From the IMG/VR virus record IMGVR_UViG_3300030329_006034, positions 29,793 through 93,792 of that record: 64,000 nt of DNA. One strand, written 5' to 3'. Of this stretch, positions 2,519 to 40,494 are shown piece by piece. Each line of letters begins with the position of its first letter. Position 1 is the stretch's first letter. This stretch comes from a virus. The position numbers and the translations under genes were made by a program. The notes below the pieces were generated by a model. It made no database searches, was not told the origin of the DNA, and saw nothing but the letters and a program-made list of their open reading frames with translations.

Positions 2519-2524
2519 GTAATA

Positions 2525-14195: not shown

Positions 14196-14875
14196 TAATA
14201 CGGGGCTAATGAATCTATAGGCTCTTTTCTAGCTATGTTAATTTCTGATTCAACAGGAGAAAAGTTAACCAGGTCAATATTGAGTTTTTCGCAGCTTTCT
14301 AAAGCTAATTTAAATTTGTCCTTTAAGCGTGTAGCTCCAAGACGGAGAGGATCCGGGGTACTGTACGAACCGTAGAAAGAATCTGCTTCTAAATTTTTGA
14401 AGAAGTTCTCACCCCACTCTTGTATACTTGACTCTGTTTTATTGCAAAATTGATTCTGTAAATTGGGTCTCTTTGCTTGGTTCCACTTTTCAACCTTAGC
14501 TGGGTTGTAGTCGTGATCAAATCCTAAGAGACAAATCTTTTCTGGACGTAGCGACATCATTATCCAGTATAACCCCATAAAAAATATAGTGTACCCGCAA
14601 TGATGCTGCGGTGACTTAATATCCCAATTAAAATAATTTTTTGCGTCTTCAGCTGTTTTAGCGTATTCGTGAAATCCTACTTCTGTTCCAAATTTAAATT
14701 CACCTGGCTTAGGCTTTTGTTCTGATGGAAAATCTCCAGAACGTATCCAAGCATCGACTGGGTGATTTCTAAATAACCTCCATGCATTATTTACACAACA
14801 TACTGCATAATCATCAAGACTTACCGCGTCAACGAGTTTGGCTGAATTACCGCTTCCTACATATAATACTTTCAT
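14195..14875 (-). CDS. Maf/DUF115/GT42-like nonulosonate transferase-fold protein
   Basis: KVLYVGSGNS, CCVNNAW, YTIFFMGLYW, ICLLGFDHDY; resembles the GxGxS / N / LxGxD pattern of CstII and Maf. Confidence 0.55.
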   Translation of the reverse strand: MKVLYVGSGNSAKLVDAVSLDDYAVCCVNNAWRLFRNHPVDAWIRSGDFPSEQKPKPGEFKFGTEVGFHEYAKTAEDAKNYFNWDIKSPQHHCGYTIFFMGLYWIMMSLRPEKICLLGFDHDYNPAKVEKWNQAKRPNLQNQFCNKTESSIQEWGENFFKNLEADSFYGSYSTPDPLRLGATRLKDKFKLALESCEKLNIDLVNFSPVESEINIARKEPIDSLAPY

Positions 14876-21894: not shown

Positions 21895-22788
21895 TTATAC
21901 AGATCTAGCTGTTATATCACTAACAGTAGAAATAACAGTATTTTCATTAACTGGTATTTCTGCACTAGTAATTGTTTCGGTTAATACAGAATAACCTACA
22001 TATCCCTCTGTATGAAAGTTCTTTAAAAAGAATTCTTTGGCACTTAGGTTAACAGCAGTAGCAGATACAGGCGTTGTAAATGAAAACCCGCAATATATAT
22101 CATCTAGATTACTATAGTTTTCTAATCTAAACCCTAAATCAACGGTCGTTAATGGAGAGTAGGTTGTAGTGTCTGAGTCGTGGTAGTCTATAAATAATTT
22201 TTGTCCTAAGTTTACATATCTAAATCTTAGCGTTCTAAATGTATCCGTTGAAAGAGTACTAAACGATGTAGATATAGCAGAAAGGTGCTCGTTAAGAATA
22301 ACGTTATGGTTATAATCTCTCAAGATAAGAGATTCCTTTTTCTTATAATCATACCCGACGCCCGGTCGACTATCACGGCCATCTACGGCGTATAGTCCCG
22401 TTGTATCAAATGCTATTTTTAATAAAACACCGCTTAATGCGTTTTCTTCAACTTCTATAAATTCACCGGCTTCTGTAAGTAAAGAAGCACCTGCTTCTGT
22501 AGTGAGCTTGCCTCCAGATAAAATCCACGCAGGGTCTGAGTCTCCTATATATTGACCCGGTAATGCTGAAATTGGAGAAGATAGAGTAGTTAGAAATGTA
22601 GCAAATGCTAGTTGGTAGTCTTCAGGATCTTCGATGTTAAGTACTTCGCTATTTGTAATAGTAGTTTGTGGTAATTTATACTGAAAAGACCATACTATAT
22701 CATAATTAGAATTATATTTTCTTTTTGTTTCTATAAAAGAATAATATCTTGCGTCAGTTGGCAAAGTAATGTCACTAGGGAAAGCCAT
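21895..22788 (-). CDS. Virion protein, possible ConA/legume-lectin-like fold
   Basis: Beta-rich; LKIAFDT, YCGFSF; own TAAATA box. Confidence 0.5.
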   Translation of the reverse strand: MAFPSDITLPTDARYYSFIETKRKYNSNYDIVWSFQYKLPQTTITNSEVLNIEDPEDYQLAFATFLTTLSSPISALPGQYIGDSDPAWILSGGKLTTEAGASLLTEAGEFIEVEENALSGVLLKIAFDTTGLYAVDGRDSRPGVGYDYKKKESLILRDYNHNVILNEHLSAISTSFSTLSTDTFRTLRFRYVNLGQKLFIDYHDSDTTTYSPLTTVDLGFRLENYSNLDDIYCGFSFTTPVSATAVNLSAKEFFLKNFHTEGYVGYSVLTETITSAEIPVNENTVISTVSDITARSV

Positions 22789-22806
22789 GTACTTATATTT
22801 AATTAC

Positions 22807-23019
22807 TCAACCTTTTATAAAAGTACAGGTCAAAGAATTAGTTGCGCGTAATCTAGTTTTAAAAACTAAAGCATATCCAAGTTTACCCAATTCTCTAAAT
22901 ACTGTACCAAAGTAATCTTCATGAACGTTAACTAGTATACTATCAAATATTTCATCATATAAGACAAAATCAGAGAACTCTTCACAGAGCGCGCTGCCTC
23001 TCTGATAACTTGCCTTCAT
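22807..23019 (-). CDS. Hypothetical protein
   Basis: TAAATA-N5-ATG. Confidence 0.6.
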   Translation of the reverse strand: MKASYQRGSALCEEFSDFVLYDEIFDSILVNVHEDYFGTVFRELGKLGYALVFKTRLRATNSLTCTFIKG

Positions 23020-23027
23020 ACTAGTAT

Positions 23028-23195
23028 TTATTCATTAAATACCTGTATTATTTCTTCAATCTTATCTAAAAGAATATTTGTTTTTTCGATTTCAGCAGTT
23101 TCATCTATAGAAAAAGATGTATGAGATTTTAGAATATTCTTAAGAACTACAAAATCTTGATAATCTAATCCTTCTACTATTACTTCATCAGCCAT
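23028..23195 (-). CDS. Small hypothetical protein (possible fibre chaperone)
   Basis: Start re-called at MADEV, TAAATT-N5-ATG. Confidence 0.55.
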   Translation of the reverse strand: MADEVIVEGLDYQDFVVLKNILKSHTSFSIDETAEIEKTNILLDKIEEIIQVFNE

Positions 23196-23228
23196 ATACA
23201 AATTTATGTATATCCGGGTGTTTATCAA

Positions 23229-24848
23229 CTAGGACCATTCAAACTTAACCATCCCAGGTCCAACGCAATATACTGGCGGGCCGCATCCGTTTTGCCCTCC
23301 TCCTCCAGCACCTGGCGCCGGCGCTGATCCCCAGTAAGAGGAAGCACCAGCACTATGGAGACATTCCCCAACACTAAGAATTCCACCATAACCACCTGTT
23401 AATACGTGGCCTGTAGCTACATATTCGTTACCGGTATTAATAGTGCCTTCTCCATGAAGTGGTATACTTCCGGTCGACGTGCGTCCACCATTAGAAATAG
23501 CAAGGTTACCGCCGCCTTTACTTATTAGACTTTGGTTACCGTTAGTATTAATTCCTGTGGGATTAGTTCCCACTGTCACACTAAAAGTAGTTCCTGCTGG
23601 AGCTGATATATAACCAGTCACAGTAGATGCAGCACCACCTGGTTTATTACCACCTGTAGCACCGGATCCTGTAACATAAAATTTAACAAACTCGATACCA
23701 GCCGGCATTTGGAAACCATTGGCAAACGTACCAGGTGTTGTAAGTACACAAGTACCTGGTGTAGGTCGTTCAATCTTTACACTACCGCTTAGAGGGTTAA
23801 ATGCTACTCCGGTTATATCGTCAGCATTTATACGCGCAGATAAGTTTTTACTAATAGTAAATGTTGGACTAGTTACACCACCAACCGCTTTAATTATAAA
23901 CATTGTACCGGTAGCGGATAATGTTGAAGCAGTTGTGGTACTGTTGACCTGGAACAATGTACTGTTAAACGGGTCATCAGACCCATATAGTGCTTTACTG
24001 GTAAAGTCAGGCACTTTAAAGCTAGAAGGCGTCCCGCCGTATTGTGTTGTTATAATTGCTGAGAGATCTGGGTAATCTGCGTTTAATACTTCCCTACCAT
24101 CGCAAGGCAACCAACCATTCGGGAAATGAGGATTACCAGCAGTAGATACATATGGTACTATGGTACCTGCAGGAATCAAAGCTGCGGTAGTTGGTGCTAC
24201 CCCTGTTGTTATAATATTAGGATTACCCCACCCTAGTGCGCCAGAAGCATCGGCTCGTAAATATTGATCCTTTTCAGGCGCGCCTAAAGGGAATGTATAA
24301 TCGATTGCATTAATTTTTAGCTTAGATGGTAAAGTAAAATAATCATCAGCATTAGTAGACGCTTGATTAATCCGATCGGTTACTATAGTACTGCTAAGAG
24401 TTACACGCCCTGAACTATCTAGAGTTTGACCTTCACCGAGAGCATCTGCAGAGAAATTATTTGCTGATAAAGTACCTACTGTAATTTCTTCAGCTGCATT
24501 TATTGTTATAGTTTGATTTCCAGCTGTATTATTAGTAGCTACTTTATACCAATTTTCAGCTAAGCTTCCAACACCGGATACACAAACAAAAAATGAATTG
24601 TTGTCGGTGTCGTATGCATAATCGCCAATATCAACAGGTGCCAGTGTCGTTAAATTTGCAGCTCTACCCTTATACTTGTTGCCTACTAAATTACCGCCTA
24701 CTGTTGTACCATCACCTATCCACAGTCTTTTTGTATCTGTCGTATACCCCAACTCTCCGCTATCTAAAGTAATTTGCTGCCGATCATAATCAGTCCCTCT
24801 CCTTACTAGGAGCTTTAATAACGTGTTTTCTAAAATTTCAATACCCAT
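23229..24848 (-). CDS. Tail fibre with Mtd-N/hyaluronidase-N-like start, tail-collar domain and Gly-rich C-terminus
   Basis: VRRG...GELGYTTDTKRLWIGDG; IPAGTIVPY...GWLPCDG...YPDL...FKVPD. Confidence 0.85.
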   Translation of the reverse strand: MGIEILENTLLKLLVRRGTDYDRQQITLDSGELGYTTDTKRLWIGDGTTVGGNLVGNKYKGRAANLTTLAPVDIGDYAYDTDNNSFFVCVSGVGSLAENWYKVATNNTAGNQTITINAAEEITVGTLSANNFSADALGEGQTLDSSGRVTLSSTIVTDRINQASTNADDYFTLPSKLKINAIDYTFPLGAPEKDQYLRADASGALGWGNPNIITTGVAPTTAALIPAGTIVPYVSTAGNPHFPNGWLPCDGREVLNADYPDLSAIITTQYGGTPSSFKVPDFTSKALYGSDDPFNSTLFQVNSTTTASTLSATGTMFIIKAVGGVTSPTFTISKNLSARINADDITGVAFNPLSGSVKIERPTPGTCVLTTPGTFANGFQMPAGIEFVKFYVTGSGATGGNKPGGAASTVTGYISAPAGTTFSVTVGTNPTGINTNGNQSLISKGGGNLAISNGGRTSTGSIPLHGEGTINTGNEYVATGHVLTGGYGGILSVGECLHSAGASSYWGSAPAPGAGGGGQNGCGPPVYCVGPGMVKFEWS

Positions 24849-24864
24849 TGTCTTATATATTTAT

Positions 24865-26376
24865 TTACCAGTTAAATACAGGAATTGCAAATCTATCAAA
24901 AGGTTCTGTACATCCAGGTCTTCTACCACTGCCAGATAATGCGAATCTTATAAATCCTGCTGAGCTTAGTCTCGTGGTAACCCCTTGACAATCTAAAGCC
25001 TCATATACTTTTTGATTATACATACCTTGATATCCTCTAGACACCTGGTTCGGAGCTCCGTTAAATAATTCATTGTTACCATCTGCCGCAGAGTATCTAA
25101 TAATAAAGTTAAATCCTTGCGCGCTTAGGGTTCCTGCGTCATTAAAACCACCGCCTGGGTCAGTGGCACCACTTATATAGTAAGTTGTTGAATCTGGTGC
25201 ACCAGCATCAGAACCATATAGTAAAACATCACCACCGGTTAGAGCAGGTACTCTAAAGAAATTACCTGGAGGGGATGGTAACCCGTTTGTGTTGTCATAT
25301 CTATTTCCGATAACGTTATACAAATCTCTGTAATTCGAATCAACAGTAGATGAATATATATTACCATCACAAAGTAAGTATCCATCAGGTATTACACTAA
25401 AGGCACGTGCGTGAGGTAATATAGTTCCTATTGGAACATCATCACCTGAAGCGCCACCTGATAACCCAGTAGCTGTTACAACATCATAAATAGAACTTGC
25501 CATTCCATTTATAATTCCATTAGATATATTAAAAAGAGCAAATTCACTAGCAGAAGTATCAGATGAGTTAGTAGAAAAGCCATTAGCTATACCAATAACA
25601 CCGTCACTACCTCTAGTTAAAGAGCTATCAACACCTGTAAATGTACCTTCTAACTTTTGTGTGCTAGCATTTAACGCTAATCCATTTCCGATAGAGTTTG
25701 GATCGAAGCTAGAGTACTTAGTAGTGTGTGTTCCGAGATTAGCTAAATAGAGGCGGTCATTAACGTCAAATTCGAATTGCGCTGGGTCAACATTAACCCT
25801 AATGGTGGCCCCATTACCACCCGAAATACCAGCACCTAAAGCAGTGGTAGATATTTCTCTTGCACCAATGGAATTTTGCTTAATACTAATCTTCCCGGCA
25901 GATATTTCATTAAAAACAGTACTATAGGCTACCGCCATCCTGTCGCCTACTTTTACGAGACCATCACCAAAAATATCGTTAGTAAATTCACTAGTATTTA
26001 CTGAGCTTTTAGCTACTATTATACTATTATTTGCTCCATAATCTAAGGTTAATCCAGGAACAGGTCCAATATATGCATGCCCGGAGAGAGGGTCGTCACC
26101 ACCATAATCTACACTGGTTAGCATGTACAGCTTACTGTTAGCATATGCGATATCACCAACTTCGGCTCCTTCTATAGTTCCTAAACTAGATTCGAGATTA
26201 AATGGTCCGTAGTTTATATTAGAGACCGCTCGACCACCTACCGAAGCACCATCACCGACATATAACCTTCTAGTATCTAAAGTGTATCCCAATTCACCCT
26301 GATCGAGTATAATAGACCTTCGTTGCTGGTTAGTACCGCGCCTTACTTTTAATTTTACTATACTTACGTCTGCCAT
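24865..26376 (-). CDS. Tail fibre with Mtd-N-like start and tail-collar domain
   Basis: KVRRG...GELGYTLDTRRLYVGDG; VPIGTILP...GYLLCDG...FRVP. Confidence 0.85.
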   Translation of the reverse strand: MADVSIVKLKVRRGTNQQRRSIILDQGELGYTLDTRRLYVGDGASVGGRAVSNINYGPFNLESSLGTIEGAEVGDIAYANSKLYMLTSVDYGGDDPLSGHAYIGPVPGLTLDYGANNSIIVAKSSVNTSEFTNDIFGDGLVKVGDRMAVAYSTVFNEISAGKISIKQNSIGAREISTTALGAGISGGNGATIRVNVDPAQFEFDVNDRLYLANLGTHTTKYSSFDPNSIGNGLALNASTQKLEGTFTGVDSSLTRGSDGVIGIANGFSTNSSDTSASEFALFNISNGIINGMASSIYDVVTATGLSGGASGDDVPIGTILPHARAFSVIPDGYLLCDGNIYSSTVDSNYRDLYNVIGNRYDNTNGLPSPPGNFFRVPALTGGDVLLYGSDAGAPDSTTYYISGATDPGGGFNDAGTLSAQGFNFIIRYSAADGNNELFNGAPNQVSRGYQGMYNQKVYEALDCQGVTTRLSSAGFIRFALSGSGRRPGCTEPFDRFAIPVFNW

Positions 26377-26384
26377 TTTTTAAA

Positions 26385-27146
26385 TTATTGTGTTCTTTTC
26401 CATATATAAGCCCCATAACTTATAGGCGATATACTAAATGCCGTTGCAGCCCCACCATCGGTGCCACCTGTATCTGAAAGTCTTTGTGCTATTGGCTGTA
26501 TCCCAGGAAATGCATAGATTGGCTCTGAAGATTGGTCGCCAGTATTTGGAACCAATTGGTTTATGGGTCCTGCAAATTCATCTTCTGCGGTTCCATCCGG
26601 AGGCGAACCTGGTGTCGACGGCCAAGACAAAATATTTTTATACCCTCCATCTTGGCCACTAGGAACGTGTGTGTGTTTGGGCATTTGCTCTTTAATTAAA
26701 GAAACAACAGAAGTTTGACCATCGTGTGACGGTCCCATACCTCCATTGTTATTTCCAGATACATATCCGGTATAATCTGTACTTGGATTTTGACCACCCA
26801 CTCCAACTAAAAATCTTCCTTCTGCAACTCGCTCCCATACAGTACCTGGTATTCTTTCACCTGGATCCGCACCGTCTACGGTAGTTATCTGAATTGATCC
26901 AACTGGAAAAAACATATCAACTAAACTAGTAATTTCGTTGTTGCCAGCCTCCTCAGACCGAACATGCTGCTCAGGAAGCTCAACGTTGTTAGCTATTACC
27001 TTTGTACCGCTAAGGGCAATCCCAGTGACGTTGCCGTCGCCGTCATATATATCCCTCTTTGGGGTCTTATTCAAATTTCCACCACTCAAGTGTAATAACG
27101 ATGAATAGGTTTCTGATATGAATTCGTTCCGTAGACTTGCTGACAT
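26385..27146 (-). CDS. Baseplate/short-fibre protein with gp10 C-terminal-like domain
   Basis: FPVGSI...PG...WERVAEGRFLVGVG...MPKHTH...YIWKRT. Confidence 0.75.
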   Translation of the reverse strand: MSASLRNEFISETYSSLLHLSGGNLNKTPKRDIYDGDGNVTGIALSGTKVIANNVELPEQHVRSEEAGNNEITSLVDMFFPVGSIQITTVDGADPGERIPGTVWERVAEGRFLVGVGGQNPSTDYTGYVSGNNNGGMGPSHDGQTSVVSLIKEQMPKHTHVPSGQDGGYKNILSWPSTPGSPPDGTAEDEFAGPINQLVPNTGDQSSEPIYAFPGIQPIAQRLSDTGGTDGGAATAFSISPISYGAYIWKRTQ

Positions 27147-27159
27147 AATATTATTTATT

Positions 27160-29100
27160 CTAGTTATTCAAAATACTATCTAGTACATTCCGTTGAAGGT
27201 TATAAAGGCTATCAAAAACTCGCGATACAACGTTGTAGTTTATTTCTTCATTTTCATGAAATTCAAAATCTCTGAAATCAACGTCAATATTAGGGTATGA
27301 AGTATATCTAGCAAGAACCGGAACACCCTCAATAGTTGTACCGGTAATTACTAAAGCTAAATTTACATAAATTTTTAAAGTGTCCTTTAATATTGATTCA
27401 ATTTCACTATTAAGAGAAATACCTAAACTAGATTCACATCCTAACTCTCTATCATATGTATTTGCTAAATCTAGAGGTAAAACATTATCATAAATTAATT
27501 TAGTAGTTCTTGTCAAATATATACGGCCTGTGTTTTGAAAAAGAGAAAAGATATTTCCATTATTTTCCTCCATTATAAAGTTAATAAAGTTCGGCCGGTT
27601 AGACGGTAGATTGTTACTATTCCATGCTAATCTACTATTCCAAAATTTTTCTAGTGTAGATACCCAGTACGAATTTGGTAAAAATTGTAAGTTACTTGCA
27701 CTAAAAAACCCTGCAGGGTATTGTGGGTTACTTATAAATCTTGTAGTAGCGGTATTTAAATCCCTAAGTATAAACATGTTAGAGTCGTCTTTAGAAAATG
27801 TAATTAAATTAGTAGACGAAGTATCTATTCTTGTTGTTGCCTGTCTCAGAGCTCGTGATTGATATCTTGTAACTCTATTCGGCTGTTGATTTAACCCGAG
27901 TCTATAATCTTCAACCAAGTCCGCATCTACATGATATACATTGTAATAAGTATTCATATCACGCGCCGGAACTGGTCCAGGGTCAGTAATCACTAAGATA
28001 GAATCATCAGTATCTCTTATGTCAAAATCTAATATAATTTCGCTAGGGTCTTGAGTGGTAATAGTTCCAAAAAATTTATTTGAATATTTATTTGTAAGCT
28101 CAACAGCTAATTTATTTTCAGCTCCAAAAGACCTTACAACTAGAGCGCCTTTAAGATTATTACCTATTTTAAAGTTCCCGTTTATAACTTCCTTCGGTTG
28201 TACGACACCTGTTCTTGGATTAATTTCACGGAAAGTAAATATATCCTTAACCTTCCACTCACCACATGTATTATAAAAACTAAAATCGTACCCTATTAAC
28301 CTATCATACACTTTGTTATCATCCGGATTTACCCATTTACCTAAATTAAATAAAGTATCGGTATTGTTATCATACGTTAAAGTAGTATTACCGGCGATAG
28401 TATCTGTTTCGTCACCTCTTAAAGTAAATAAACTATTTCTAAGAAAGCTCCCTGAAAAAGACTTCGTTGCAGTATCAGTGATTATAAAATAGTTAAATGT
28501 TTGGTTTTTGTTAACTATTAAAGTGGTGCTAATTGCATCATCTAAACTTTCTATACCATCTAGAACATCTGGGATATCGTTCACCTCCACCCTAACGCCG
28601 TCTGAATTAACCCTAATGGTATTAAAAGGCAGAGCGTTAAAAGACTCGGCATTAGATTTAGCTAAGCTTACATTTGGATTTTTAGATTCAGCTAAACTGG
28701 ACAATGCTAGAACATAAGAAGCTGCATCTTCACTGGTAGACTGGAAGTTAAATATTTCGGGGTTAGACAATATATTAAGATCATACAAGTTTAAATTATT
28801 GTCGTTTAAAATATCTAAATTCTTATTAAGAAACGACTGGTCAATAATATCCTTTGGCGATATATGCGGCTTTGTAAGCACCTTATCTGCTTGTACTAAA
28901 CTAAATGTACGATCAAATTCTTTTTTCGCTAGAAATGAATTAGCTATAAAAGTACCTTTAGTACTTAGCGGTTGTGATAGAGAAGTAAGAGACTTTCCAG
29001 TAAAAGCCCGTCCATCGTCTGTAACGTTAAAAAGACCTTTGTAGTCTGTACCGCTTAAAGTAAACGACTCTCCCGAAGTATATTTAAAATATGATATCAT
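27160..29100 (-). CDS. Putative baseplate/virion structural protein
   Basis: 646 aa, beta-rich, in the tail operon. Confidence 0.6.
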   Translation of the reverse strand: MISYFKYTSGESFTLSGTDYKGLFNVTDDGRAFTGKSLTSLSQPLSTKGTFIANSFLAKKEFDRTFSLVQADKVLTKPHISPKDIIDQSFLNKNLDILNDNNLNLYDLNILSNPEIFNFQSTSEDAASYVLALSSLAESKNPNVSLAKSNAESFNALPFNTIRVNSDGVRVEVNDIPDVLDGIESLDDAISTTLIVNKNQTFNYFIITDTATKSFSGSFLRNSLFTLRGDETDTIAGNTTLTYDNNTDTLFNLGKWVNPDDNKVYDRLIGYDFSFYNTCGEWKVKDIFTFREINPRTGVVQPKEVINGNFKIGNNLKGALVVRSFGAENKLAVELTNKYSNKFFGTITTQDPSEIILDFDIRDTDDSILVITDPGPVPARDMNTYYNVYHVDADLVEDYRLGLNQQPNRVTRYQSRALRQATTRIDTSSTNLITFSKDDSNMFILRDLNTATTRFISNPQYPAGFFSASNLQFLPNSYWVSTLEKFWNSRLAWNSNNLPSNRPNFINFIMEENNGNIFSLFQNTGRIYLTRTTKLIYDNVLPLDLANTYDRELGCESSLGISLNSEIESILKDTLKIYVNLALVITGTTIEGVPVLARYTSYPNIDVDFRDFEFHENEEINYNVVSRVFDSLYNLQRNVLDSILNN

Positions 29101-31484
29101 TTATAGTTTATAAAGTTAACGTCGTTAATAGTTGTGGTTTCAGGTAGTGATGAAGTAATGTTATTTAAAAGCAAGGTTCTCACTTCCTCTGTAATACCAC
29201 TATCCTGAATATTTAAATTCTTTACATTAATATCCACTACATTACTCCTATGCTTTAAATTAGTTCCTATTGAATTAACTGTTGCAATAGTATCTGTTAA
29301 ATTACGCTGACCGCAAGGCAGGGATATAGTAATATCCTGTATTTCGTTTAAATTCTGTGTGAATACGCCAGATATTTCTTCTTCTTCACTTAGCGGTGAT
29401 AATGTGAGATATATATCATCAATATATAAATTAGGATCTGGGTTCGGGTTAAGCAATCTTTCTGCAACACCGTCGGAGCCTACTATTTCGATTATGCCAA
29501 ATAAAATCATTTTATTTAACATCTGGTAAGCCTTTACATTAAAAGAAAACACAACCTCAGAATTTACATATAATGTACATTCTCCTCGGATACCATCAAA
29601 TGATAAAAATACTGTATTATTAACAAATTGATTTAACGGTATATTTTTACTAAAGGATACTAGAACCGGTGGTTCGGGTGAATTATCAAAAATATTAAAT
29701 GAAAAGCTTAAATCACCGTTACTCTTCTTAATAAGTTGAAATCCTCCGTTAATATCATTTCTTTTCGATCTTATAGTAAATGCGCTTGAATTGCTTTTTA
29801 TATTAAACCCTAAAGCAAATCCGCCATTATCATTTATTACTCTAAAGTAATTGTTGACGCGATCTGTTAATTCAGCGCCTTCACAAAAGTTAACTGGTCT
29901 CCTTTTTTCTAATTCATCCTTATCTAATCGCTCGTACCGATATCGTGTATTTGGCTCAAACACCAAATCGCTTTTCTTATCAAATATGTATTTTTTTTCT
30001 ACTGAAGTTTTTAAGGTACTATTATTTTGGATAAGTTCCTCTACCAATAAATCGTACGTAATATTAAATGAACCGTTAGTTGACAGAGCTTCTTCTTTTG
30101 ATGTTAGGTCAGGGTAAAAATACCTATCAACCCAAACCCCTCGTTCGCCTAATCCACCGGAGAGCCATGTGCACAGATACGTAGCGTCTAGATCTTTAAC
30201 CCCGTCTTCATCGTCCAGGTGATAAACTCTGTCAGATAAAAAGGGTTGCGTAAAGCAAAACGCTCCCGAATCCACAAACTTAGTATCATTAATATTAATT
30301 TGTGTAAACGGATTTAAGGACGACGGGGTTTGGAAAATTGTACTACCCGGTTTTATTTTTACATTAAAGTTGTTGTAGACGTAATTTAATGCCAATACTT
30401 CATTTTTTTCACTATCTATATCAGAAAAGATACTAGTGTATTTTCTTAAACCTTCAACGTATAACGGGTTAGTGTCACTAGAAGATAATAAATTATTAGA
30501 CGAAACATACTCATCGTAATTATTGGCAATATTTTTTAAATTAAGTATATCGAATTTTGGCTTTGTTGAATTTGACGAAGAGTGTAATAGGTAGTTGGAT
30601 GGTAGATTAAAGTTGCTCTTATCCGTATCTACCTTATTACCGGCTTTGTTATAAGTAACAAAAGAGGTATTATAGGGTGAAGGTATAGTAAGATCAATTT
30701 CCCCTCCAAGTTTAATAGCTTTACCTGGAAGCCAAAGGGCGTCTACTTTTTCGGTCGGAGCGATTCTTTCAGCTATTAACGTCTGCCCGTCGCTTACAAG
30801 TATGTATTTGCCCGATTCTGAATCTTTGTCCTCCGGAAATAGGAACTTTTGTGAAAATAGACATATAAAATCTGATGTAGTATCTACCCCGCTTTTAATA
30901 ATTGAGTATTCTAAATTTGCGGCGGATAATGGAATTTTGTTTTCCCCTGCAAAAATAACTTTTTTCTGCAGATCCACTCGTCGCCCTTGGCCTATATTTT
31001 CGTCACTAACTATAAGATAGTAGCGAAAGTTATTAACAAGAAATGCAACTCTACATGTAAAAGTATCTATTAGTTGTATCTCTATGTTATCAGCGTCAGC
31101 AATATTGGTTGTAATACCTGGATACCCGTAATAGCCGGCCTCATATGTATTTCCAACCTCTCTAAAATTAGACGCATCAGCTATATTGAAGTTTAGATAC
31201 CCCGGCGCATCTGCTGCAAAGTTTAGTGTAGAAAATATTTTTTCCGGAATTACACGGCCACCTGTAAATGTTGTTACGTTATCAAGCTTATATTCATTTG
31301 AGAGATAAAAATTTGTAAAATTTAAATTTTTAAAGCTTTGCGTCCCGGATAGAGCTGTAATAAAATTAAATCTATATCCACCTGGATATGTCCTATAAAA
31401 TTGATCTAAATCCAGATCTACAGGACATATTTCTGCTGTTTCTGATTTTAAAGCGCTTAAGCCAGCTTGTACCAATGCTCCCAT
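29097..31484 (-). CDS. Putative baseplate protein with C-terminal LamG-like domain
   Basis: VFLSFDG...TLYVNSE; TATAAATA upstream. Confidence 0.6.
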   Translation of the reverse strand: MGALVQAGLSALKSETAEICPVDLDLDQFYRTYPGGYRFNFITALSGTQSFKNLNFTNFYLSNEYKLDNVTTFTGGRVIPEKIFSTLNFAADAPGYLNFNIADASNFREVGNTYEAGYYGYPGITTNIADADNIEIQLIDTFTCRVAFLVNNFRYYLIVSDENIGQGRRVDLQKKVIFAGENKIPLSAANLEYSIIKSGVDTTSDFICLFSQKFLFPEDKDSESGKYILVSDGQTLIAERIAPTEKVDALWLPGKAIKLGGEIDLTIPSPYNTSFVTYNKAGNKVDTDKSNFNLPSNYLLHSSSNSTKPKFDILNLKNIANNYDEYVSSNNLLSSSDTNPLYVEGLRKYTSIFSDIDSEKNEVLALNYVYNNFNVKIKPGSTIFQTPSSLNPFTQININDTKFVDSGAFCFTQPFLSDRVYHLDDEDGVKDLDATYLCTWLSGGLGERGVWVDRYFYPDLTSKEEALSTNGSFNITYDLLVEELIQNNSTLKTSVEKKYIFDKKSDLVFEPNTRYRYERLDKDELEKRRPVNFCEGAELTDRVNNYFRVINDNGGFALGFNIKSNSSAFTIRSKRNDINGGFQLIKKSNGDLSFSFNIFDNSPEPPVLVSFSKNIPLNQFVNNTVFLSFDGIRGECTLYVNSEVVFSFNVKAYQMLNKMILFGIIEIVGSDGVAERLLNPNPDPNLYIDDIYLTLSPLSEEEEISGVFTQNLNEIQDITISLPCGQRNLTDTIATVNSIGTNLKHRSNVVDINVKNLNIQDSGITEEVRTLLLNNITSSLPETTTINDVNFINYK

Positions 31485-31504
31485 TGTATATATTTATACT
31501 GCAG

Positions 31505-32986
31505 TTAGCTTAAGCGAACTGTTGATAGTTTATATCCCCATGTATTTCCTACCGCTTCCATTCCTGCACTTATGTCTGCCTGTATATCAGAGTTCCCGAA
31601 ATTTCTTGCTTTGCCAACATAACCATTACTTGAACTCCTCTGTAATATACCTAAAAGTAACAATTCTTCAAAATATGTTATAAAAATCGGACCACCGCTG
31701 TCGCCGCTACTTACCCCGGATAAGCTTAAATTATAAGTCGACAGCGCCGGTGAAACATTAGTTAGTTTAAAATCTGGTAGACCTGGGGGCCCTATATTTA
31801 ATGTAATAATAGAGTTGTAACTATTAATTATTGTGTTATCACTATTCCTAGATAAGGATAATCGATTAATAAAGTCTGTTGAACCATACCCTGCAAAATG
31901 ATCACTATCAAACATTTTACTTCCACCGTTATACACTACAGGGTAGTTGTCAGCCGGTACCTCGTTTGCAAAATGCGGAACCTTGTATAATTTAATATTA
32001 GCAGCTGATCCTGTAGATGCAGTAGCAGTGACTAAATCACGATTAAAACTGACAACTCTTAAATCATTTCCTATGTTAGCTGCCGCGGAAATAGTAGCAG
32101 ATACAGAATTACCGGTAGTGTGGTCATAAAAATACGCTGTATCACCAGCCTTTGGATCGTCGTTAAAATGGTCTACACTTATTCCGTGTCTAGGTGTAAT
32201 TAAAGTTATATTATTGTTATCTCCAAATCCTGTTGCTTTGTAGCTTGTTCCGGAAAAATCATAAACAGATCTATTAGCATATCCCCAAAAACTAGATTTC
32301 CATGTCGCGGATTCGTCAGTTATACTCTCTATAAACTTAAATTTATCTTCCGCTCCAGCAGGGTCAGCAACAGCAGATAAAAGTGATTGTGTTTCGTTTA
32401 TACTCTGGTTGGATGTGTCGCTGTATGAAGACAAGGTATTAATTGAACCTATTGTATCGTATTGTATAGTATCATTGCTGTGATTCTGGATTACAAAATT
32501 ATCTTGCTTGGTTAAAAATGTAAAAATAGACTTATTGTCCTTATTGTTTAATAAACTTACATTTAATAATTCAATATCGTTTATATTTTCATAATAACCT
32601 TCTGTCCGAACGTTTAGAGGAATAATAAACTTATACGTTTCACCTGTAATGTAGCCTACGTTTACTCTCATTGTTAGTGCCTTTTTAAGAGCAGTGTCAG
32701 AGGGGTAAAATATATGAGGGTATTGGTTGTTTAAAAATACAGGGGAAGCCCCATCTCTAACTTCAGGGTATATAGAGTCTGTTTTGTAATTTCTATATAT
32801 TGTAATGTCTGGTTCTTCGATCCCGCTATCATCACCCCAGTTAATAGCTAAGTAGTTTGGAAATACGCCAGAATAAACTTGTGATAAATCTAAAGATAAT
32901 TTAGTTAAATCGAACAGTTCAACGGTTGGCAGTTCCTGAGTACCAGTTACAGAAGTTGAAGTAAGATATACGGTATAAGTGTTCAT
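31505..32986 (-). CDS. Virion protein: PKD-like N-terminus + trypsin-like serine protease
   Basis: INWGD; TLITPRHGISVDH, NDLRV, SGDSGGP. Confidence 0.8.
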   Translation of the reverse strand: MNTYTVYLTSTSVTGTQELPTVELFDLTKLSLDLSQVYSGVFPNYLAINWGDDSGIEEPDITIYRNYKTDSIYPEVRDGASPVFLNNQYPHIFYPSDTALKKALTMRVNVGYITGETYKFIIPLNVRTEGYYENINDIELLNVSLLNNKDNKSIFTFLTKQDNFVIQNHSNDTIQYDTIGSINTLSSYSDTSNQSINETQSLLSAVADPAGAEDKFKFIESITDESATWKSSFWGYANRSVYDFSGTSYKATGFGDNNNITLITPRHGISVDHFNDDPKAGDTAYFYDHTTGNSVSATISAAANIGNDLRVVSFNRDLVTATASTGSAANIKLYKVPHFANEVPADNYPVVYNGGSKMFDSDHFAGYGSTDFINRLSLSRNSDNTIINSYNSIITLNIGPPGLPDFKLTNVSPALSTYNLSLSGVSSGDSGGPIFITYFEELLLLGILQRSSSNGYVGKARNFGNSDIQADISAGMEAVGNTWGYKLSTVRLS

Positions 32987-35826
32987 AGTATTATAGAAGC
33001 AGCAGATGGTGGAAAAGAAATGGATAAGGTTGGTATACCAGAACTTAGTGCAAATTCCAAAAAGCTAAGATCCATTTCCGGGGTACCCCACCCAGATGTT
33101 TTAATAAAGTTAAAGGTTTGAGATGTATCGTTAGCGATATAATATTCAGTATTTATAAATTTAACTTTGTTCTTATATTCAAAAATATAAGAATATAATC
33201 TCGGGGCTTTGTTTTGATCTTTAAGTATAAAACTTAAATTAAACAGTTCGTTATCACTACTGTATGTTAATACCGGTTTGCTTGATTCTAATATAACAAC
33301 ATCATTTTTCATGCTATTAAAATACAGAGCGTCATAAGCTACAGGCGTTTCAGCAGTTGGATAAATTTGTTCTACTTTTTTTGTCGTATAGTTAAATTTA
33401 TAAATTTCTGGGTATACGCTAAAATCTTTAAACACTGTGTTTGCATTTATGACCCCTGTATGAACTAGCTTAGCATAATAAACATCCTCACCTACCTTAA
33501 ATCTATTACTAATTTTATCAAAATTATTAGTATTGGTAGATAACACGTTTGAAATTGACCCATAGTTGTCAAATTCATAAGTTTTAATATTATAATCTAT
33601 GTTTTCAACCACTAAGAATGAACTAGTCTCAATAAACAAGGTGTTGTAAAATAAATCAAAATTCTTTACACATGTCGATAGCTCGTGTTTAATGGTCGAT
33701 GAATACTTTGTATCTAAGTATGTTAGTGTCTCGGTAAGTTCCTTTACATTAGGCCAATTAGAAGGTTTGTTTATATTTTTAACGTATATTTTACCACAAT
33801 TAACTTGCTTGGAAAAGAAGCTTTCTGCTGCAGATACGACATCTGTTACTACTGTTTGTCTTAAAGTTTCATCGACATAATCTGTCGACTCAAAGCCACG
33901 TGGTCTGTAATCAAAAGTAAGATCATCAAAAAATAACCCAGCTTCCATGTTAGTAACATTGTTATCACCTGAAGCCACCACATTATAAGTAAAATCACCG
34001 GTTGCTGTTGGGTGTAGCGTATCGCAAAGAGCTCTCACAATAGTCGACTTATCATCATAATAGGATATACCTGCTTCTAATAAGTCAGAAAAGAAAAACT
34101 CTCCGGTCGAGGTAGAATACGAACTTAAATTAGTACTTACAGCGTCATCAAGTATTTGTTCGTCAGAGAATTTAAAAAAGGCACCTTCCTTTACATTAGC
34201 GTCAATAGTACCTACCTGTTCTATATCTACTGCTGAGAAAGTTGGTATGGGCATTAAAGGCTGGTCGTCGTAATATCTACCAAATATATCATAACCAGAA
34301 GCTTGTTCTGCAACTGTTCCAGCTGTAAAGCCCTGAGTGTAAGACGTAATGCCCGATCTCCGTGTTTCGGAGTATGTTGCTGTATCTGTAGTATCGTAAT
34401 TAAAGCTAAATCCCTCACCATACAATGTATCATAAAATTGATAACCGTTTAGAATTAAACTTTTAATTACTTTTCTATCTGCTACCTTAAAATTATTTCT
34501 ATAGTAATTTTGATCCTTAAGTAAGCCAAAAACATTACCATTTAAATCTTTTTTACTGTCGTGTATATACCCTTGGTTGAATAAAAAGGATAAGTCAGAG
34601 TTAATATTTTTACCCGTAGGTAACTCCGAATTATATCCCATCAGGGATGTGCTGTTTTTATCCGTATTAGGTTGATTTACAGCAGCCCCCTTACTTTGAT
34701 TGCTTATTGATCTAGACGTATCAATAATAAATGTAAAAATTTCATCATTGTTTGTAAACAGATTAGGATCCGGAAAAATATAAAGTTTATTAGTACCATA
34801 AAACGACTTACTAAAGAAACTTAGTCGTTCACTTTCAATAGAAACTATACTCGCGTTGGTGGGTTTAAAAAATCCTTGATCCCTTACGCTTTTTATTTCA
34901 TTAGAAAATACTGAAGCTACAGAAGGGTAGTTTGTGTTTAAGAAATTAGCATAGGGGGCGTCTGCTTCAAATAACGTCCCTATTTCAAACGCACCAACAT
35001 TATTTGAAGACAGGTAATAATAGTCGGCGCCTATAAATTTTTCTGTTTGCGATCTTTTATTTTCAAATAACTGATCAACTTCTTTTAGCTCTTTTATAAC
35101 ACTATCAATCCCAAAAAATACTTCCTCGACTAACACTGTATCATTAGTTAAAAATATATTACTCGATGGTGCACCTTCGGGGTTATACTCTCTATAATTT
35201 TCACCGTATACTTTATCATTAGGTTCAGCATTAAAATATTGAGTGTATTGGTCTACAAATTCAGTTAACGAGACAGTAACATTTTCTTTTATAGTATCTA
35301 TGTTATAATCTTGTGCAGCGGTACTTCTATTAGCTAAAAAATCTGTAATAAGATTATAAGCATTTTGCTTGAAACCAAAATTGCTTCCTTTAAGCTTTGC
35401 TTTAGTTGTTGAAAAATGTAGCTTATCTCTCTTTACTTGATAGTAAGAAATAATGCTTCTAATTTTTCTACTATAAAAAGATATTGCTATTTGCAAATCA
35501 TACTTATCTGCAAAGTCAATTTGCGAAAGAAATTTTTTCTCAGCATTTGTTGTATAATTAAGGGTAATATCTCTTAAAAACTCTCTATATCTTTCTATAA
35601 TAATTTCTTTATCTGAAGCTTCCTTAGAAGTTTTTTTAATATTATATCTCCTAATATATTCATTATAGAAATTCTGTAAATCAGCGGGGTCGTAAGACTC
35701 GCGAACATTTTCCATAAATTCAAGAAAAGTAAACGGTCTATTTCTATCTAGAGCGTTTTCTCTCCTTACGTTTGGATTGGTTACAGATAAATTAACCTCA
35801 GGATACCCTTGAATTACTTCTTCCAT
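32983..35826 (-). CDS. Large putative baseplate structural protein
   Basis: 947 aa in the baseplate cluster; TAAATA-N6-ATG. Confidence 0.6.
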   Translation of the reverse strand: MEEVIQGYPEVNLSVTNPNVRRENALDRNRPFTFLEFMENVRESYDPADLQNFYNEYIRRYNIKKTSKEASDKEIIIERYREFLRDITLNYTTNAEKKFLSQIDFADKYDLQIAISFYSRKIRSIISYYQVKRDKLHFSTTKAKLKGSNFGFKQNAYNLITDFLANRSTAAQDYNIDTIKENVTVSLTEFVDQYTQYFNAEPNDKVYGENYREYNPEGAPSSNIFLTNDTVLVEEVFFGIDSVIKELKEVDQLFENKRSQTEKFIGADYYYLSSNNVGAFEIGTLFEADAPYANFLNTNYPSVASVFSNEIKSVRDQGFFKPTNASIVSIESERLSFFSKSFYGTNKLYIFPDPNLFTNNDEIFTFIIDTSRSISNQSKGAAVNQPNTDKNSTSLMGYNSELPTGKNINSDLSFLFNQGYIHDSKKDLNGNVFGLLKDQNYYRNNFKVADRKVIKSLILNGYQFYDTLYGEGFSFNYDTTDTATYSETRRSGITSYTQGFTAGTVAEQASGYDIFGRYYDDQPLMPIPTFSAVDIEQVGTIDANVKEGAFFKFSDEQILDDAVSTNLSSYSTSTGEFFFSDLLEAGISYYDDKSTIVRALCDTLHPTATGDFTYNVVASGDNNVTNMEAGLFFDDLTFDYRPRGFESTDYVDETLRQTVVTDVVSAAESFFSKQVNCGKIYVKNINKPSNWPNVKELTETLTYLDTKYSSTIKHELSTCVKNFDLFYNTLFIETSSFLVVENIDYNIKTYEFDNYGSISNVLSTNTNNFDKISNRFKVGEDVYYAKLVHTGVINANTVFKDFSVYPEIYKFNYTTKKVEQIYPTAETPVAYDALYFNSMKNDVVILESSKPVLTYSSDNELFNLSFILKDQNKAPRLYSYIFEYKNKVKFINTEYYIANDTSQTFNFIKTSGWGTPEMDLSFLEFALSSGIPTLSISFPPSAASIIL

Positions 35827-35835
35827 TAAACATAT

Positions 35836-38178
35836 TTATCCTTCAAATAGAGATAGACTACTAAATAATGAGTTCCTAATCATTATGTCGAATATATTAT
35901 CATCACCCTCTAGGCCTGTAATCCCTGTATTATAAGTTAACTCATTCGCCCCGCGGCTGTGTGTAGGTTCCCCAGTAAGCCACCCCCCAGCTCCATCCGG
36001 GTATGCGGTATCTAAAATGCCAGTCTGTGGGTTTGACCAATCAATAACCCCGTTTAGAATTTCTCCGCTATCGCCAGGTGTATATTGATAAAATGTGTAA
36101 AATTGTTCAATACCAGTCCCTGTAGTACCGGGAGGTAGTACTAATGGCCATCCCCAGTTATCATTATATGAACTTAAACTATATGTGGATATAATTGGTG
36201 ACCCGGTAAAAAACCTACTCCAGCTATCTCGCTCTACAACCTCAGCCGTCAGTAATGGTTGATAGGTATTAAGCTGGGTGTATACTCCGCTGAATTTTTC
36301 ATAAGCTACTATGTCTATGTTGCTAGATATTAGATAGGTTGCAACAGATATTTCGTCTCCTAAATTTGTACCGTATATTTCTTTTGATGTTCTGTTTCTA
36401 GTATCGAAATTTTGGCTAAATGCATTTTTATATCCTCTAAACTTATTATACTGTATGCTTAGCAAGTTTATTAATCTTTTTATTTCTTCTGGGTAAGTAC
36501 TATTATAGATTAAAGTTTCGTTGTCTACTAACTTGCTCATTCCGTCAAGAGCTGTAACATGGCAGACGTCAATATCAGAGGTATTTTGTACAAAGTTGAT
36601 TATACTTTCGTATAATTTCTTACCCAACCCGGTATTATTACTACTAACACCACCAAAAATTGACCCTATAAAATCTGTAAAAAATATGTCCTTATCAAAA
36701 AGTATCTCTTGAAATCTAAGATCCTTTATCATTTGTTCAAAGTCAAAATCTTCATTAACCTTATATAAAGAATAATAATCTTTAGGATACAAACTAAAAT
36801 TAGTCCCGCCTGTTAGAGTGAATTCTGTTGTTACCGCATCATTGGACACGTACGCGTAAGCGTTTCTAGCACTCAATTGTACATTCATTACAACAGCGCT
36901 TGAAGCAGCAATTAAACTATCATCATACTTAAGTACGCCTCTATACCAAAAATCAGTTCCAATAGAAGATAGGGTGTTGTTTAAATTTGTAATAGTATAA
37001 TTGTCTGTGCTTATATGAACGCCGTTTGCGCATCCGTTACTACCAGACTGGGGTATTAAGTATGATGTTCTACAAACCAGGGCAAATTCAGGATCACCCG
37101 CAGAAAGAGCATTTGATGTAAATGAGTTTTCATTTTTAGGTTTAATAATAAAAGGGATATTGGTATTTTTATATTGTATGGGACTAAGCTTGAAAGAGTT
37201 AATTTCATCTCCCTCATTATCTAGCCCATTTGAAGAGATGGAAATATCTCCTGAGGATAAAGAATTAACATTAGACGGCCCGACTATAGCGGAAAGACTG
37301 ACGGTAAAATTATTTAGAAAGTTGTGATTAGAATACCCGCTGGTTCCTCTAGAGTAAATATTATTCCTGTCTTTATAAAAAGATAGATATACAGGCGTCG
37401 TGGAGAGGGTTTGTTCCTGTGTTTTAAAGTACACTACCTTTGTTCCAGATTGACCTGCTACAATAGATGACGGCGTGTTGGTTGTAGATGTGACTAGCTC
37501 TGTTCCGCTAAGCCTAACATATAGATTTTCTGAAGATAGAGGTATCTTAGTTAATTCAATATATTGAAACCCGGTTAAATTTGGCAAAAATTGCTTTTCA
37601 TAAAAAGAAAAGTAATCACGTAACTGGTTATATTTATTATCATCTAAATTAAAATAGTTAGGACAATCAGTTCCAGAAACTGAAAAGTAAATATCTTGAA
37701 AATCTTGGTAAAAAGGTGTTTGTGAGTTTATAGTTAACGGTGTAGAATATTCACCTGCTGATAGGGCGAATTTATAATAGGGTTGAAGATCTAAGCAAGT
37801 AACTACAAACGTATTTGTTATATAATCTTCTATTTGGATATCTTTGCTATCAGAAGCGAGAATAGCGTTGTTATTGCAGTCCCTTAGCACCATTCTAACA
37901 GTATAAACTCCGGGAAATTCAAAATTATGAGCTGCGCTTAATATATTGTTTCCAGATATATCGTTGCCAAGAGATGTTGCGTGTTCAATAGTCCCATCAC
38001 CGTAATCAAATGTTACTTCGGTATTATTAAGAGCTAATGATACGTCACCGGTTTGCGTAGGAACATTCGCGAAAAAAGTAAGCGGCGTTATCGATAGATT
38101 ATAGGAGGATAGTGCATAATCCCCCTTATAGTCAATAGCGCTAATAGTAGCATAATTTGTTCTTGCGTTACTCATCAA
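35836..38178 (-). CDS. Baseplate wedge-like protein (gp7 position) with PKD/Ig domain
   Basis: FDYGDGT...HNFEFPGVYTVRM; follows gp6. Confidence 0.6.
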   Translation of the reverse strand: MMSNARTNYATISAIDYKGDYALSSYNLSITPLTFFANVPTQTGDVSLALNNTEVTFDYGDGTIEHATSLGNDISGNNILSAAHNFEFPGVYTVRMVLRDCNNNAILASDSKDIQIEDYITNTFVVTCLDLQPYYKFALSAGEYSTPLTINSQTPFYQDFQDIYFSVSGTDCPNYFNLDDNKYNQLRDYFSFYEKQFLPNLTGFQYIELTKIPLSSENLYVRLSGTELVTSTTNTPSSIVAGQSGTKVVYFKTQEQTLSTTPVYLSFYKDRNNIYSRGTSGYSNHNFLNNFTVSLSAIVGPSNVNSLSSGDISISSNGLDNEGDEINSFKLSPIQYKNTNIPFIIKPKNENSFTSNALSAGDPEFALVCRTSYLIPQSGSNGCANGVHISTDNYTITNLNNTLSSIGTDFWYRGVLKYDDSLIAASSAVVMNVQLSARNAYAYVSNDAVTTEFTLTGGTNFSLYPKDYYSLYKVNEDFDFEQMIKDLRFQEILFDKDIFFTDFIGSIFGGVSSNNTGLGKKLYESIINFVQNTSDIDVCHVTALDGMSKLVDNETLIYNSTYPEEIKRLINLLSIQYNKFRGYKNAFSQNFDTRNRTSKEIYGTNLGDEISVATYLISSNIDIVAYEKFSGVYTQLNTYQPLLTAEVVERDSWSRFFTGSPIISTYSLSSYNDNWGWPLVLPPGTTGTGIEQFYTFYQYTPGDSGEILNGVIDWSNPQTGILDTAYPDGAGGWLTGEPTHSRGANELTYNTGITGLEGDDNIFDIMIRNSLFSSLSLFEG

Positions 38179-40005: not shown

Positions 40006-40494
40006 CTAAACTATATAGTATCCTTCTTTATTTAAGCGACCTTCGAGAGTTATGCCATAAGCATTAAGTGAAGGTACATTTATTGTTAAAAACACATCAA
40101 ACCGGTTCTCATCTGGTTTGGCTACTACTTCTACATTTTCTAACTCTATTCTCGGCTCTTGATCAGGCAAGCTTCTTTCTATATCTTGCTGTATCCAAGT
40201 TTCCTCAAACACGGATACTTGTTCAAATAGATGCCTTCTCAAATCAATACCAAACTCCGGGTTTAGTATCTTTTGACCTGGGGATGTTAAAAAAGCATTT
40301 GCAATACTATTTTTTACCGACTCTAAATCAAACACTCCTTGTACATCCTTTAACTGCTGGCCCTTATTTAACTGCCGGTTGTAATAAACAGCCATTTTTA
40401 AATCTAGACGTAGATCTTTATATAAGTAGTCATTATTTAAACTAACGTTATCTAGCTTATCTACTGATAATTCAGGTATTTTTATTAGAGGCAT
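40006..40494 (-). CDS. gp25: Baseplate wedge subunit / sheath initiator (gp25-like)
   Basis: SVKNSIAN..LTSPGQKILNPEFG, EPRI. Confidence 0.9.
   Translation of the reverse strand: MPLIKIPELSVDKLDNVSLNNDYLYKDLRLDLKMAVYYNRQLNKGQQLKDVQGVFDLESVKNSIANAFLTSPGQKILNPEFGIDLRRHLFEQVSVFEETWIQQDIERSLPDQEPRIELENVEVVAKPDENRFDVFLTINVPSLNAYGITLEGRLNKEGYYIV

Follow-up and report, generated by a model that had tools for sequence, protein, structure and literature searches.

In a clade of uncultured T4-like phages from the sea, the baseplate and fibre proteins that face outward carry a short motif, L-S-[A/G/S] (hereafter L-S-small), which is five to ten times as frequent as chance would give and appears to be kept by selection. 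The motif was found in nine open reading frames (ORFs) on the minus strand at positions 21895–38178 of a 64,000-nt window (positions 29,793–93,792 of IMG/VR virus record IMGVR_UViG_3300030329_006034), which is the right-hand part (64 kb) of one viral contig of 93.8 kb (G000); all positions below are those of the window unless a locus is named. The source virus is an uncultured marine T4-like myovirus. The reading preferred here, to which a probability of about 0.4 is assigned, is that L-S-small is a selected recognition tag for modification of its serine, with O-glycosylation as the leading chemistry.

The first-pass annotation of this DNA had counted about 28 LSA and LSG tripeptides in roughly 5250 amino acids (aa) of the block, with about five expected, and both figures held: LS[AG] occurred exactly 28 times in 5253 aa, against 5.14 expected from the composition of each protein (Poisson 2e-12). 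The true motif is L-S-[A/G/S], which was found 42 times in the block against 9 expected (z ~10–11). Shuffling within windows of 10, 20 or 40 residues gave 5.3–5.7 expected LS[AG], and the highest count among 2000 shuffles was 15 (z ~10), so that composition and local composition were ruled out as the cause and the excess over shuffled proteins stood. LS was the first of 400 dipeptides by enrichment (79 vs 40.6), the top five of the 8000 tripeptides in the block were LSA, LSG, ALS, LSS and TLS, and LS[AG] ranked first among all motifs of the form x-y-[zz'].

The excess was specific for both residue order and residue identity. Against the 28 occurrences of LS[AG], the permuted forms L[AG]S, SL[AG], S[AG]L, [AG]LS and [AG]SL were found 1, 7, 2, 13 and 3 times, respectively. 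The LS excess arose mainly from LS followed by a small residue: the next position in the block was A in 15, G in 13 and S in 14 cases, as well as T in 8 and F in 7, with K, Y, E, N and D depleted. Of the variants mentioned in the first-pass annotation, LSS was clearly in excess (14 vs 3.9 expected), whereas [IV]S[AG] was only weakly raised (16 vs 8.5). Thr in place of Ser gave no excess (LT[AG] 6 vs 5.0 expected), Ser being favoured about five-fold over Thr in the window, where Leu was likewise preferred over Ile, Val or Phe at the first position. The motif was encoded by five Leu codons, five Ser codons and mixed Ala and Gly codons; owing to this diversity the signal lies at the protein level, and a DNA-level word was ruled out as its cause. 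No extended consensus was found around the motif, apart from a weak preference for A, T or P at position −1, and other Ser sequons (DSD, [ST]GS, [ST][GAS]S, D[ST]x and NxS/T) were at expectation in the block.

The excess was restricted to the outer tail. In the rest of the genome, LS[AGS] was found 24 times against 21.2 expected, and the terminase, gp6 and gp25 were at expectation. An occurrence claimed for gp18 was not borne out, the two LS[AG] of the gp18-like sheath (0.87 expected) being not significant. The claimed spread over tail and baseplate proteins was confirmed overall, except that the second ORF of the block carries its motif only in the LSS form (Table 1). The claimed separation from mucin tracts also stood: the Thr/Ser-rich mucin-like ORF that follows the block showed no excess. 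Two further ORFs encoded near the right end of the window, neither with a PHROG assignment, may be fibre-like motif carriers outside the block, namely, a Gly-rich ORF of 553 aa (21% Gly; LS 8 vs 3.1 expected) and an ORF of 121 aa.

Reading along the minus strand, gp25 is followed by a gp6-like gene, the nine ORFs of the block, the mucin-like ORF and a four-gene glycosyltransferase operon. Searches of Pfam and PHROGs recognized a gp10 C-terminal-like protein and two collar fibres in the block, whereas no Pfam or PHROG assignment was obtained for the remaining six ORFs. The order gp25–gp6–block, together with the Pfam and PHROG assignments of gp25, gp6-like, Gp10_C, Collar and Mtd_N proteins, matches a T4-type outer baseplate and fibre region. 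The gp6 of the window is about 30% identical to cyanomyovirus gp6. No match was found by megablast of the block against phage records, there was no nucleotide match among cultured phages, and tblastn with the 780-aa ORF gave no match. Since the partial contig yielded neither a capsid nor a portal gene, the statements on the motif concern the tail and do not extend to the head.

Table 1. Features of the window and their L-S-small sites. All features marked − are on the minus strand; site numbers are residues of the protein, and expected numbers are given after "vs".
Feature	Position	Strand	Assignment and basis	L-S-small sites
Gp25-like inner baseplate gene	40006–40494	−	Pfam GPW_gp25	LS[AG] 0; motif-free internal control
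Gp6-like inner baseplate gene	38168–40003	−	Pfam Gp6-like	LS[AG] 0; motif-free internal control
780-aa outer baseplate protein	35836–38178	−	Directly downstream of gp6; N-terminal half tandem Ig/PKD-like	Richest carrier, 11 vs 1.57: LSA 80, 139, 295, 358, 435; LSG 223; LSS 23, 214, 307, 403, 668
947-aa baseplate protein	32983–35826	−	Family unassigned	No LS[AG], three LSS; LS 12 vs 5.9
493-aa baseplate protein	31505–32986	−		LSA 203; LSG 422; LSS 185; vs 1.08
795-aa baseplate protein	29097–31484	−		LSA 9, 186; LSG 45, 441; LSS 333; vs 1.2
646-aa baseplate protein	27160–29100	−		Weakest carrier: LSG 15; LSS 133; vs 1.02
253-aa protein with gp10 C-terminal-like domain	26385–27146	−	Pfam Gp10_C, 2e-12	LSG 20, 45; vs 0.37
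503-aa tail fibre	24865–26376	−	Mtd_N + Collar (Pfam)	LSG 97, 305, 480; LSA 417; LSS 470; vs 1.15
539-aa tail fibre	23229–24848	−	Mtd_N + Collar (Pfam, PHROG)	LSA 127, 262, 310, 336; LSG 353; LSS 151; vs 0.91
297-aa distal protein	21895–22788	−	Last block ORF; family unassigned	LSG 90, 118; LSA 169, 248; LSS 69; vs 0.65
2058-aa Thr/Ser-rich mucin-like ORF	15716–21892	−		1 vs 0.97
Four-gene glycosyltransferase operon	11320–15702	−		
276-aa GT-A enzyme, polypeptide GalNAc-transferase-like	14872–15702	−	Candidate initiating transferase; Pfam GT2 (residues 7–136), motifs	
226-aa protein with GT42 (Cst-I/Cst-II) sialyltransferase-like fold	14195–14875	−	Candidate glycan-extending enzyme; AF2, Foldseek, VIA-align	
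189-aa GT29 (sialyltransferase)-like protein	13626–14195	−	Pfam Glyco_transf_29, 1e-9	
465-aa ORF	43331–44728	−		See text
Sheath (gp18-like)	51953–54385			LS[AG] 2 vs 0.87
553-aa Gly-rich ORF	61156–62817	−		LS[AG] 3 vs 0.96
121-aa ORF	63066–63431	−		LS[AG] 2 vs 0.14

The carriers, for which about 40 exact L-S-small sites are now listed, have their location in common and not their ancestry. According to all-against-all BLAST, at least eight of them are without detectable similarity to one another, and only the two collar fibres are paralogous, and these only in their N-terminal and collar parts. No internal repeat was found in the family of the 780-aa protein, the hhalign probabilities for its seven alignment segments being below 8%. 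Paralogy and hidden tandem repeats were thus ruled out as the cause. Three familiar local patterns were also rejected: a helix N-cap or capping box (Glu at N3 in a minority of sites, and a beta-rich model), a leucine-rich repeat (no L-x-x-L-x-L flanks) and a lipobox, which is considered below among the known systems.

In the AlphaFold2 (AF2) model of the 780-aa protein, which is of low confidence (pLDDT 55), the N-terminal 465 residues are beta-rich, and Foldseek matched the model to proteins with tandem immunoglobulin (Ig)-like domains. In this model, sites 80, 295 and 435 lie in mid-strand, sites 139 and 223 at strand ends before a hairpin, and sites 214, 307 and 403 in loops; as modelled, the domains do not each carry a motif on one and the same strand. 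Comparison with T4 gp6–gp12 (motif 1 vs 2.2 expected; LS 9 vs 16), T4 Hoc (motif 0) and the giant baseplate protein of cyanophage Syn19 (7 vs 5.6) ruled out that the bias belongs generally to T4-type baseplates or to phage proteins with tandem Ig-like domains.

Conservation was analyzed in 66 IMG/VR loci encoding homologues of the 780-aa protein (33–80% identity), and an excess of 6–11-fold recurred there. The homologues of the block were enriched 6–8-fold in every one of these loci (e.g., 22 vs 2.8), and the neighbouring gp6, gp25, clamp-loader and dUTPase genes were at or below expectation (LS[AG] 4 vs 20.6 in gp6 and 0 vs 7.1 in gp25). Pooled LS[AG] counts, which overstate the sample size because the relatives are phylogenetically non-independent, were 454 vs 40.9 expected for 51 homologues of the 780-aa protein (about 17 conserved columns), 137 vs 20.1 for the 795-aa, 122 vs 26.0 for the 947-aa, 32 vs 4.8 for the 493-aa, 52 vs 16.1 for the 646-aa and 12 vs 1.4 for the 253-aa protein. 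In 34 conserved motif columns from five families, the strictness of which follows partly from their having been chosen on the motif, Leu accounted for 30.1 of 34 (I + V 1.5) and Ser for 29.3 of 34 (T 1.7), with S (12.4), G (9.1) and A (9.1) at the third position. Motif Leu columns were more conserved than other Leu-majority columns (0.87 vs 0.80, p = 0.02), as were motif Ser columns in comparison with other Ser-majority columns (0.85 vs 0.75, p = 0.008). A side observation concerns the unassigned 465-aa ORF at 43331–44728, whose homologues carry LS[AG] 25 times in 27 sequences (7.7 expected), apparently at one conserved site that is lacking in the copy of the window.

It should be noted that the sites are conserved within clades and not between them. 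A comparison of the group with at least 60% identity and the group with about 45% identity revealed 12 fixed motif columns common to both and 10 specific to one clade, and the alternative states at the latter were usually one substitution away (LST, LKS, LAA, PSA, TSA). In a deeper relative, G006 (41% identity in gp6, 26–29% in the homologue of the 780-aa protein), no more than 3 of the 16 columns that are conserved in the 780-aa family carried the motif, the others reading I-Q-A, F-N-S, V-D-A, F-A-N, etc., and the homologue nevertheless contained eight motifs against 1.3 expected. At five of these eight sites, the family reads V-T-x or I-T-I; this column comparison was made at 29% identity and is subject to alignment error. 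G006 also contains an independent motif carrier, an ORF of 1189 aa (L109:3083–6652, plus strand) with 12 LS[AGS] against 2.1 expected and no BLAST similarity to any protein of the window. Non-redundant lineage-specific insertions carried five motifs in 498 aa (0.77 expected, p = 0.001). This turnover in G006 together with the enriched insertions indicates that the fold tolerates other residues and that the tripeptide has been repeatedly re-created. The tripeptide itself, rather than a set of fixed sites, appears from these alignments to be under selection, and the short Ser-centred motif that had been proposed for outer virion proteins behaves as a selected linear tag, and not as a consequence of composition, paralogy or the T4-type baseplate fold.

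The operon downstream of the fibre genes contains the candidate enzymes. Glycosyltransferases had been claimed for the window, and they are present, one of them with the catalytic signature of polypeptide GalNAc-transferases (ppGalNAc-T). This is the product of the first gene of the operon, the 276-aa GT-A enzyme, in which Pfam GT2 covers only the N-terminal half. Alignment of 13 diverse members of its family revealed the invariants D94-x-H96, H219 and G-F-G-G-E-E, and the family profile aligned its D-x-H, H and GGE motifs with the D-S-H metal site and the WGGEQYE...PCSRVGH Gal/GalNAc-T motif of human ppGalNAc-T10 (PDB 2d7i). The GT-A D-x-H...H triad and the Gal/GalNAc-T (WGGE) motif that characterize family GT27 are both found in this protein. 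In the profile search of PDB, ppGalNAc-T10 (E 0.002–0.003) and ppGalNAc-T4 (E 0.01) were the only matches spanning most of the domain, whereas the stronger matches were generic GT2 N-terminal halves; a single-sequence search of PDB gave no match, and Glyco_transf_7C was seen faintly in 2 of the 13 members (E 0.018). Neither a ricin-type lectin domain nor a type II membrane anchor was found; the catalytic domain fills the protein, with no further Pfam domain. Its motifs suggest that the enzyme may be related, as a protein of a prokaryotic virus, to those that initiate mucin-type glycosylation. Its relatives also occur in some Enterobacterales genomes, and pairs of its gene with a GT42-like one are widespread among diverse phage contigs (L094–L107).

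The 226-aa protein encoded next has a model of high pLDDT (92), which matched Cst-II in Foldseek (E 8.5e-4, probability 1.0) and Cst-I and Cst-II in VIA-align, with Z values of 12.1 and 11.8 and a root-mean-square deviation of 3.4–3.5 over 177–180 of 226 residues, clearly above the next rows; a single-sequence search of PDB gave only chance-level matches. Its family comprises at least 140 clusters at 43–96% identity without a Pfam label and has the invariant motifs N-N-A-W and L-G-F-D-H-D-Y. The 189-aa GT29-like protein matched ST3Gal and ST6Gal sequences of PDB weakly (E 0.04–0.3). The GT-A gene lies directly after a fibre-region gene in G002 and G006, adjoins a GT42-like gene in many phage lineages and is syntenic in G002–G005, where partial homologues of the mucin-like ORF precede it in G003–G005 and where its identity (59–68%) exceeds that of the baseplate proteins (45–50%). 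Thus, enzymes to start a glycan on protein Ser/Thr and to cap it with a sialic-acid-like sugar are plausibly present.

Taken together with the motif, these genes make a glycosylation sequon a plausible interpretation. An enzyme would read L-S-small as a linear tag and modify the central serine; the modification would be a sugar, added by O-glycosylation in the infected cell by the phage-encoded transferases of the late operon directly downstream of the fibre genes. The glycan would be initiated by the compact GT-A enzyme that resembles ppGalNAc-T and extended by the two enzymes of sialyltransferase fold, GT42-like and GT29-like. A tag is favoured by the residue strictness, which is unusual for strand positions, by carriers that share location and not ancestry, and by the mixed structural contexts of the sites. 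A literature search found no description of such a sequon on phage tail proteins.

Several observations weigh against this interpretation. The modification of the central serine is putative, and what supports it comes from sequences and models. O-glycosites are found more often in loops, whereas in the single carrier that was modelled, at the low confidence given above, roughly half of the sites lie within predicted beta-strands of Ig-like domains. The transferases also have a more obvious acceptor in the mucin-like ORF beside the operon, which lacks the excess. A preprint reports that the glycosyltransferases of phages can act in DNA hypermodification instead (bioRxiv 10.1101/2023.12.21.572611). 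The contig also has QueD- and QueE-like genes. Among seven motif-rich records (G000–G006, 41–81% complete) and two controls (T4 and Syn19), the GT27-like gene for the 276-aa enzyme was found in six of the seven (G000 and G002–G006, with 45% identity in G006) and neither in G001 nor in the controls (0 of 2); the GT42-like gene was found in G000 and G006 and not in G001–G005, where the positive control worked; and a second family of GT2 type, encoded at the contig's left end, was found in G000, G001 and G003 and not in G002, G005 or G006. The correlation of the motif with specific glycosyltransferases was accordingly not clean, no family common to all seven motif-rich records being found. G001 (171 kb, 81% complete) has 17 motifs against 2.4 expected without the GT27-like and GT42-like genes, although the expected syntenic position of the former lies inside its assembled sequence. 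The neighbourhoods of the transferase pair in unrelated phage lineages (L087–L107) showed no general excess (94 vs ~83), few of their ORFs being known as structural; among these distant carriers, only G006 has a gp6 homologue.

The same facts bear on the principal alternative, a lineage-specific structural or assembly motif without covalent modification, which has a substantial though lesser-than-even chance of being correct. L-S-small would then build strand, strand-end or interface positions in beta-sandwich and fibre modules, for example with Leu in the core, the small residue allowing tight packing and Ser hydrogen-bonded to a neighbouring strand or subunit; alternatively, it would be recognized by a clade-specific fibre or baseplate chaperone. 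The strong conservation of the sites within clades, with motif L and S above other L and S columns, is what a structural role would lead one to expect, as are the strand positions in the tandem Ig-like domains, the confinement of the excess to proteins that assemble together and its persistence in G001 without candidate transferases. The hydrophobic–polar–small pattern also resembles the strand-B L-S-C pattern of immunoglobulin domains. At 45% identity, however, a strand position should accept I or V in place of L and T in place of S, which the motif columns do not, and since the same columns vary in the 29%-identical homologue of G006, the fold does not need the motif. Site contexts are heterogeneous, the carriers have neither a repeat nor a shared domain, new insertions carry the motif too, and the baseplate proteins of T4, T4 Hoc and the Syn19 baseplate protein are without the bias, all of which speaks against a structural element.

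The evidence for a linear tag applies equally to a tag for another serine modification (phosphorylation, acylation or ADP-ribosylation) or for another phage or host sequence reader, with the glycosyltransferases serving the mucin-like protein, a sufficient candidate acceptor for the operon, or some other target. Such a tag would also accommodate the motif-rich G001. It is nonetheless considered unlikely, as no candidate kinase or acyltransferase was identified beside the block and the literature search found no known enzyme with L-S-small specificity. It is very improbable, and largely excluded by the tests run, that the excess is an artefact of statistics or composition, reflects a hidden signal in the DNA or stems from repeated modules of shared ancestry. 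Non-independence of the relatives inflates the pooled counts, but the z of ~10 under local shuffles, the tripeptide ranks and the order specificity were obtained in a single genome, the codons are diverse, neither paralogy nor repeats were found, and independent lineage-specific sites as well as the enriched unrelated ORF of G006 reproduce the signal.

Glycosylation of L-S-small serines would have both likenesses to and differences from known systems. In mycobacteriophages, the acceptors are capsid and tail-tube proteins, and to our knowledge no short sequon across many proteins has been described for them. Freeman et al. reportedly found in 2023 (Cell Host Microbe) that mycobacteriophage virions are glycosylated by phage-encoded glycosyltransferases. 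The likeness is that phage-encoded glycosyltransferases would decorate the structural proteins of their own virus in the infected cell, whereas the putative acceptors here are outer baseplate and fibre proteins with a strict tripeptide and are known from sequence. In animal mucin-type O-glycosylation (ppGalNAc-T of GT27, then ST6GalNAc of GT29), the enzymes generally prefer Thr, and we know of no L-S-small sequon among the animal ppGalNAc-T enzymes. The phage GT-A enzyme shares the triad and the Gal/GalNAc-T motif with ppGalNAc-T10, and a GT29-like ORF follows later in the same operon; the phage enzyme differs in its size of 276 aa, without lectin domain or membrane anchor, and the similarity is weak (E ~0.002).

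Among bacterial systems, the Maf enzymes of Aeromonas, Campylobacter and Clostridium are flagellin nonulosonic-acid O-glycosyltransferases (PMC9290775, PMC11339370), which form cytoplasmic O-linkages to many Ser/Thr residues of a surface filament protein and to whose fold that of the GT42-like 226-aa protein is related. The acceptor serines of Aeromonas Maf1 are flanked by Leu or Ile, and the mutants L160A and I168A are impaired (PMC9290775), which is a precedent for hydrophobic-flanked Ser acceptors. Unlike L-S-small, the sites used by Maf, in the D2/D3 region of flagellin, follow no fixed consensus, and Maf needs flagellin-specific recognition; moreover, the GT42-like gene here does not track the motif. 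No ORF matched Maf (Pfam, E <= 0.01; none among the Foldseek and VIA-align matches listed for the 226-aa protein), the fold superfamily being shared. The analogy drawn in the first-pass annotation with the Bacteroidota D-[ST]-[AILVMT] sequon holds in so far as both are three-residue Ser/Thr-centred motifs spread over many proteins; L-S-small is nevertheless a distinct motif, D-[ST]-x itself being at expectation in the block (26 vs 22.5), and it is a periplasmic host system that reads the Bacteroidota sequon, whereas the phage products are cytoplasmic. L-S-[A/G] coincides with the first three positions of the lipobox of bacteria, L-[AS]-[GA]-C, but Cys follows the motif at 0 of 42 sites and the sites are internal, so that L-S-small is no lipoprotein signal.

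A broader proposal, put forward tentatively and considered rather doubtful, is that marine T4-like phages use lineage-specific "serine codes", in which each clade would carry its own strict Ser-centred tripeptide on its outer tail proteins, read in the cytoplasm by a phage ppGalNAc-T-like enzyme, and thereby a sugar-coated adsorption apparatus. If so, L-S-small would be the first O-glycosylation sequon to be defined in a bacteriophage, and its enzyme would be a prokaryotic-virus relative of those starting mucin-type glycosylation in animals. Should the serines be modified, a precise sequon for virion glycosylation would be available for an abundant group of uncultured ocean phages, whose receptor-binding machinery would be routinely sugar-coated, with a bearing on host recognition, stickiness to marine particles and evasion of proteases and grazers; glyco-engineering could also make use of a compact, soluble polypeptide glycosyltransferase whose tag is three residues long. 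Should they be unmodified, the unusually clean selection for a tripeptide across dissimilar proteins would need a structural or assembly explanation.

To the left of the window (G000:C1:643–6499, locus L113), the contig encodes a Nucleotid_trans protein, a 254-aa GT2 protein, AAA_28, a radical-SAM protein (Fer4_12, QueE-like), PhoH and a PTPS/QueD-like protein, which may represent a 7-deazaguanine-type DNA modification set beside more glycosyltransferases. Two ORFs of about 250 aa at 2092–3602 in this region are present in G001 as a fused version of 532 aa.

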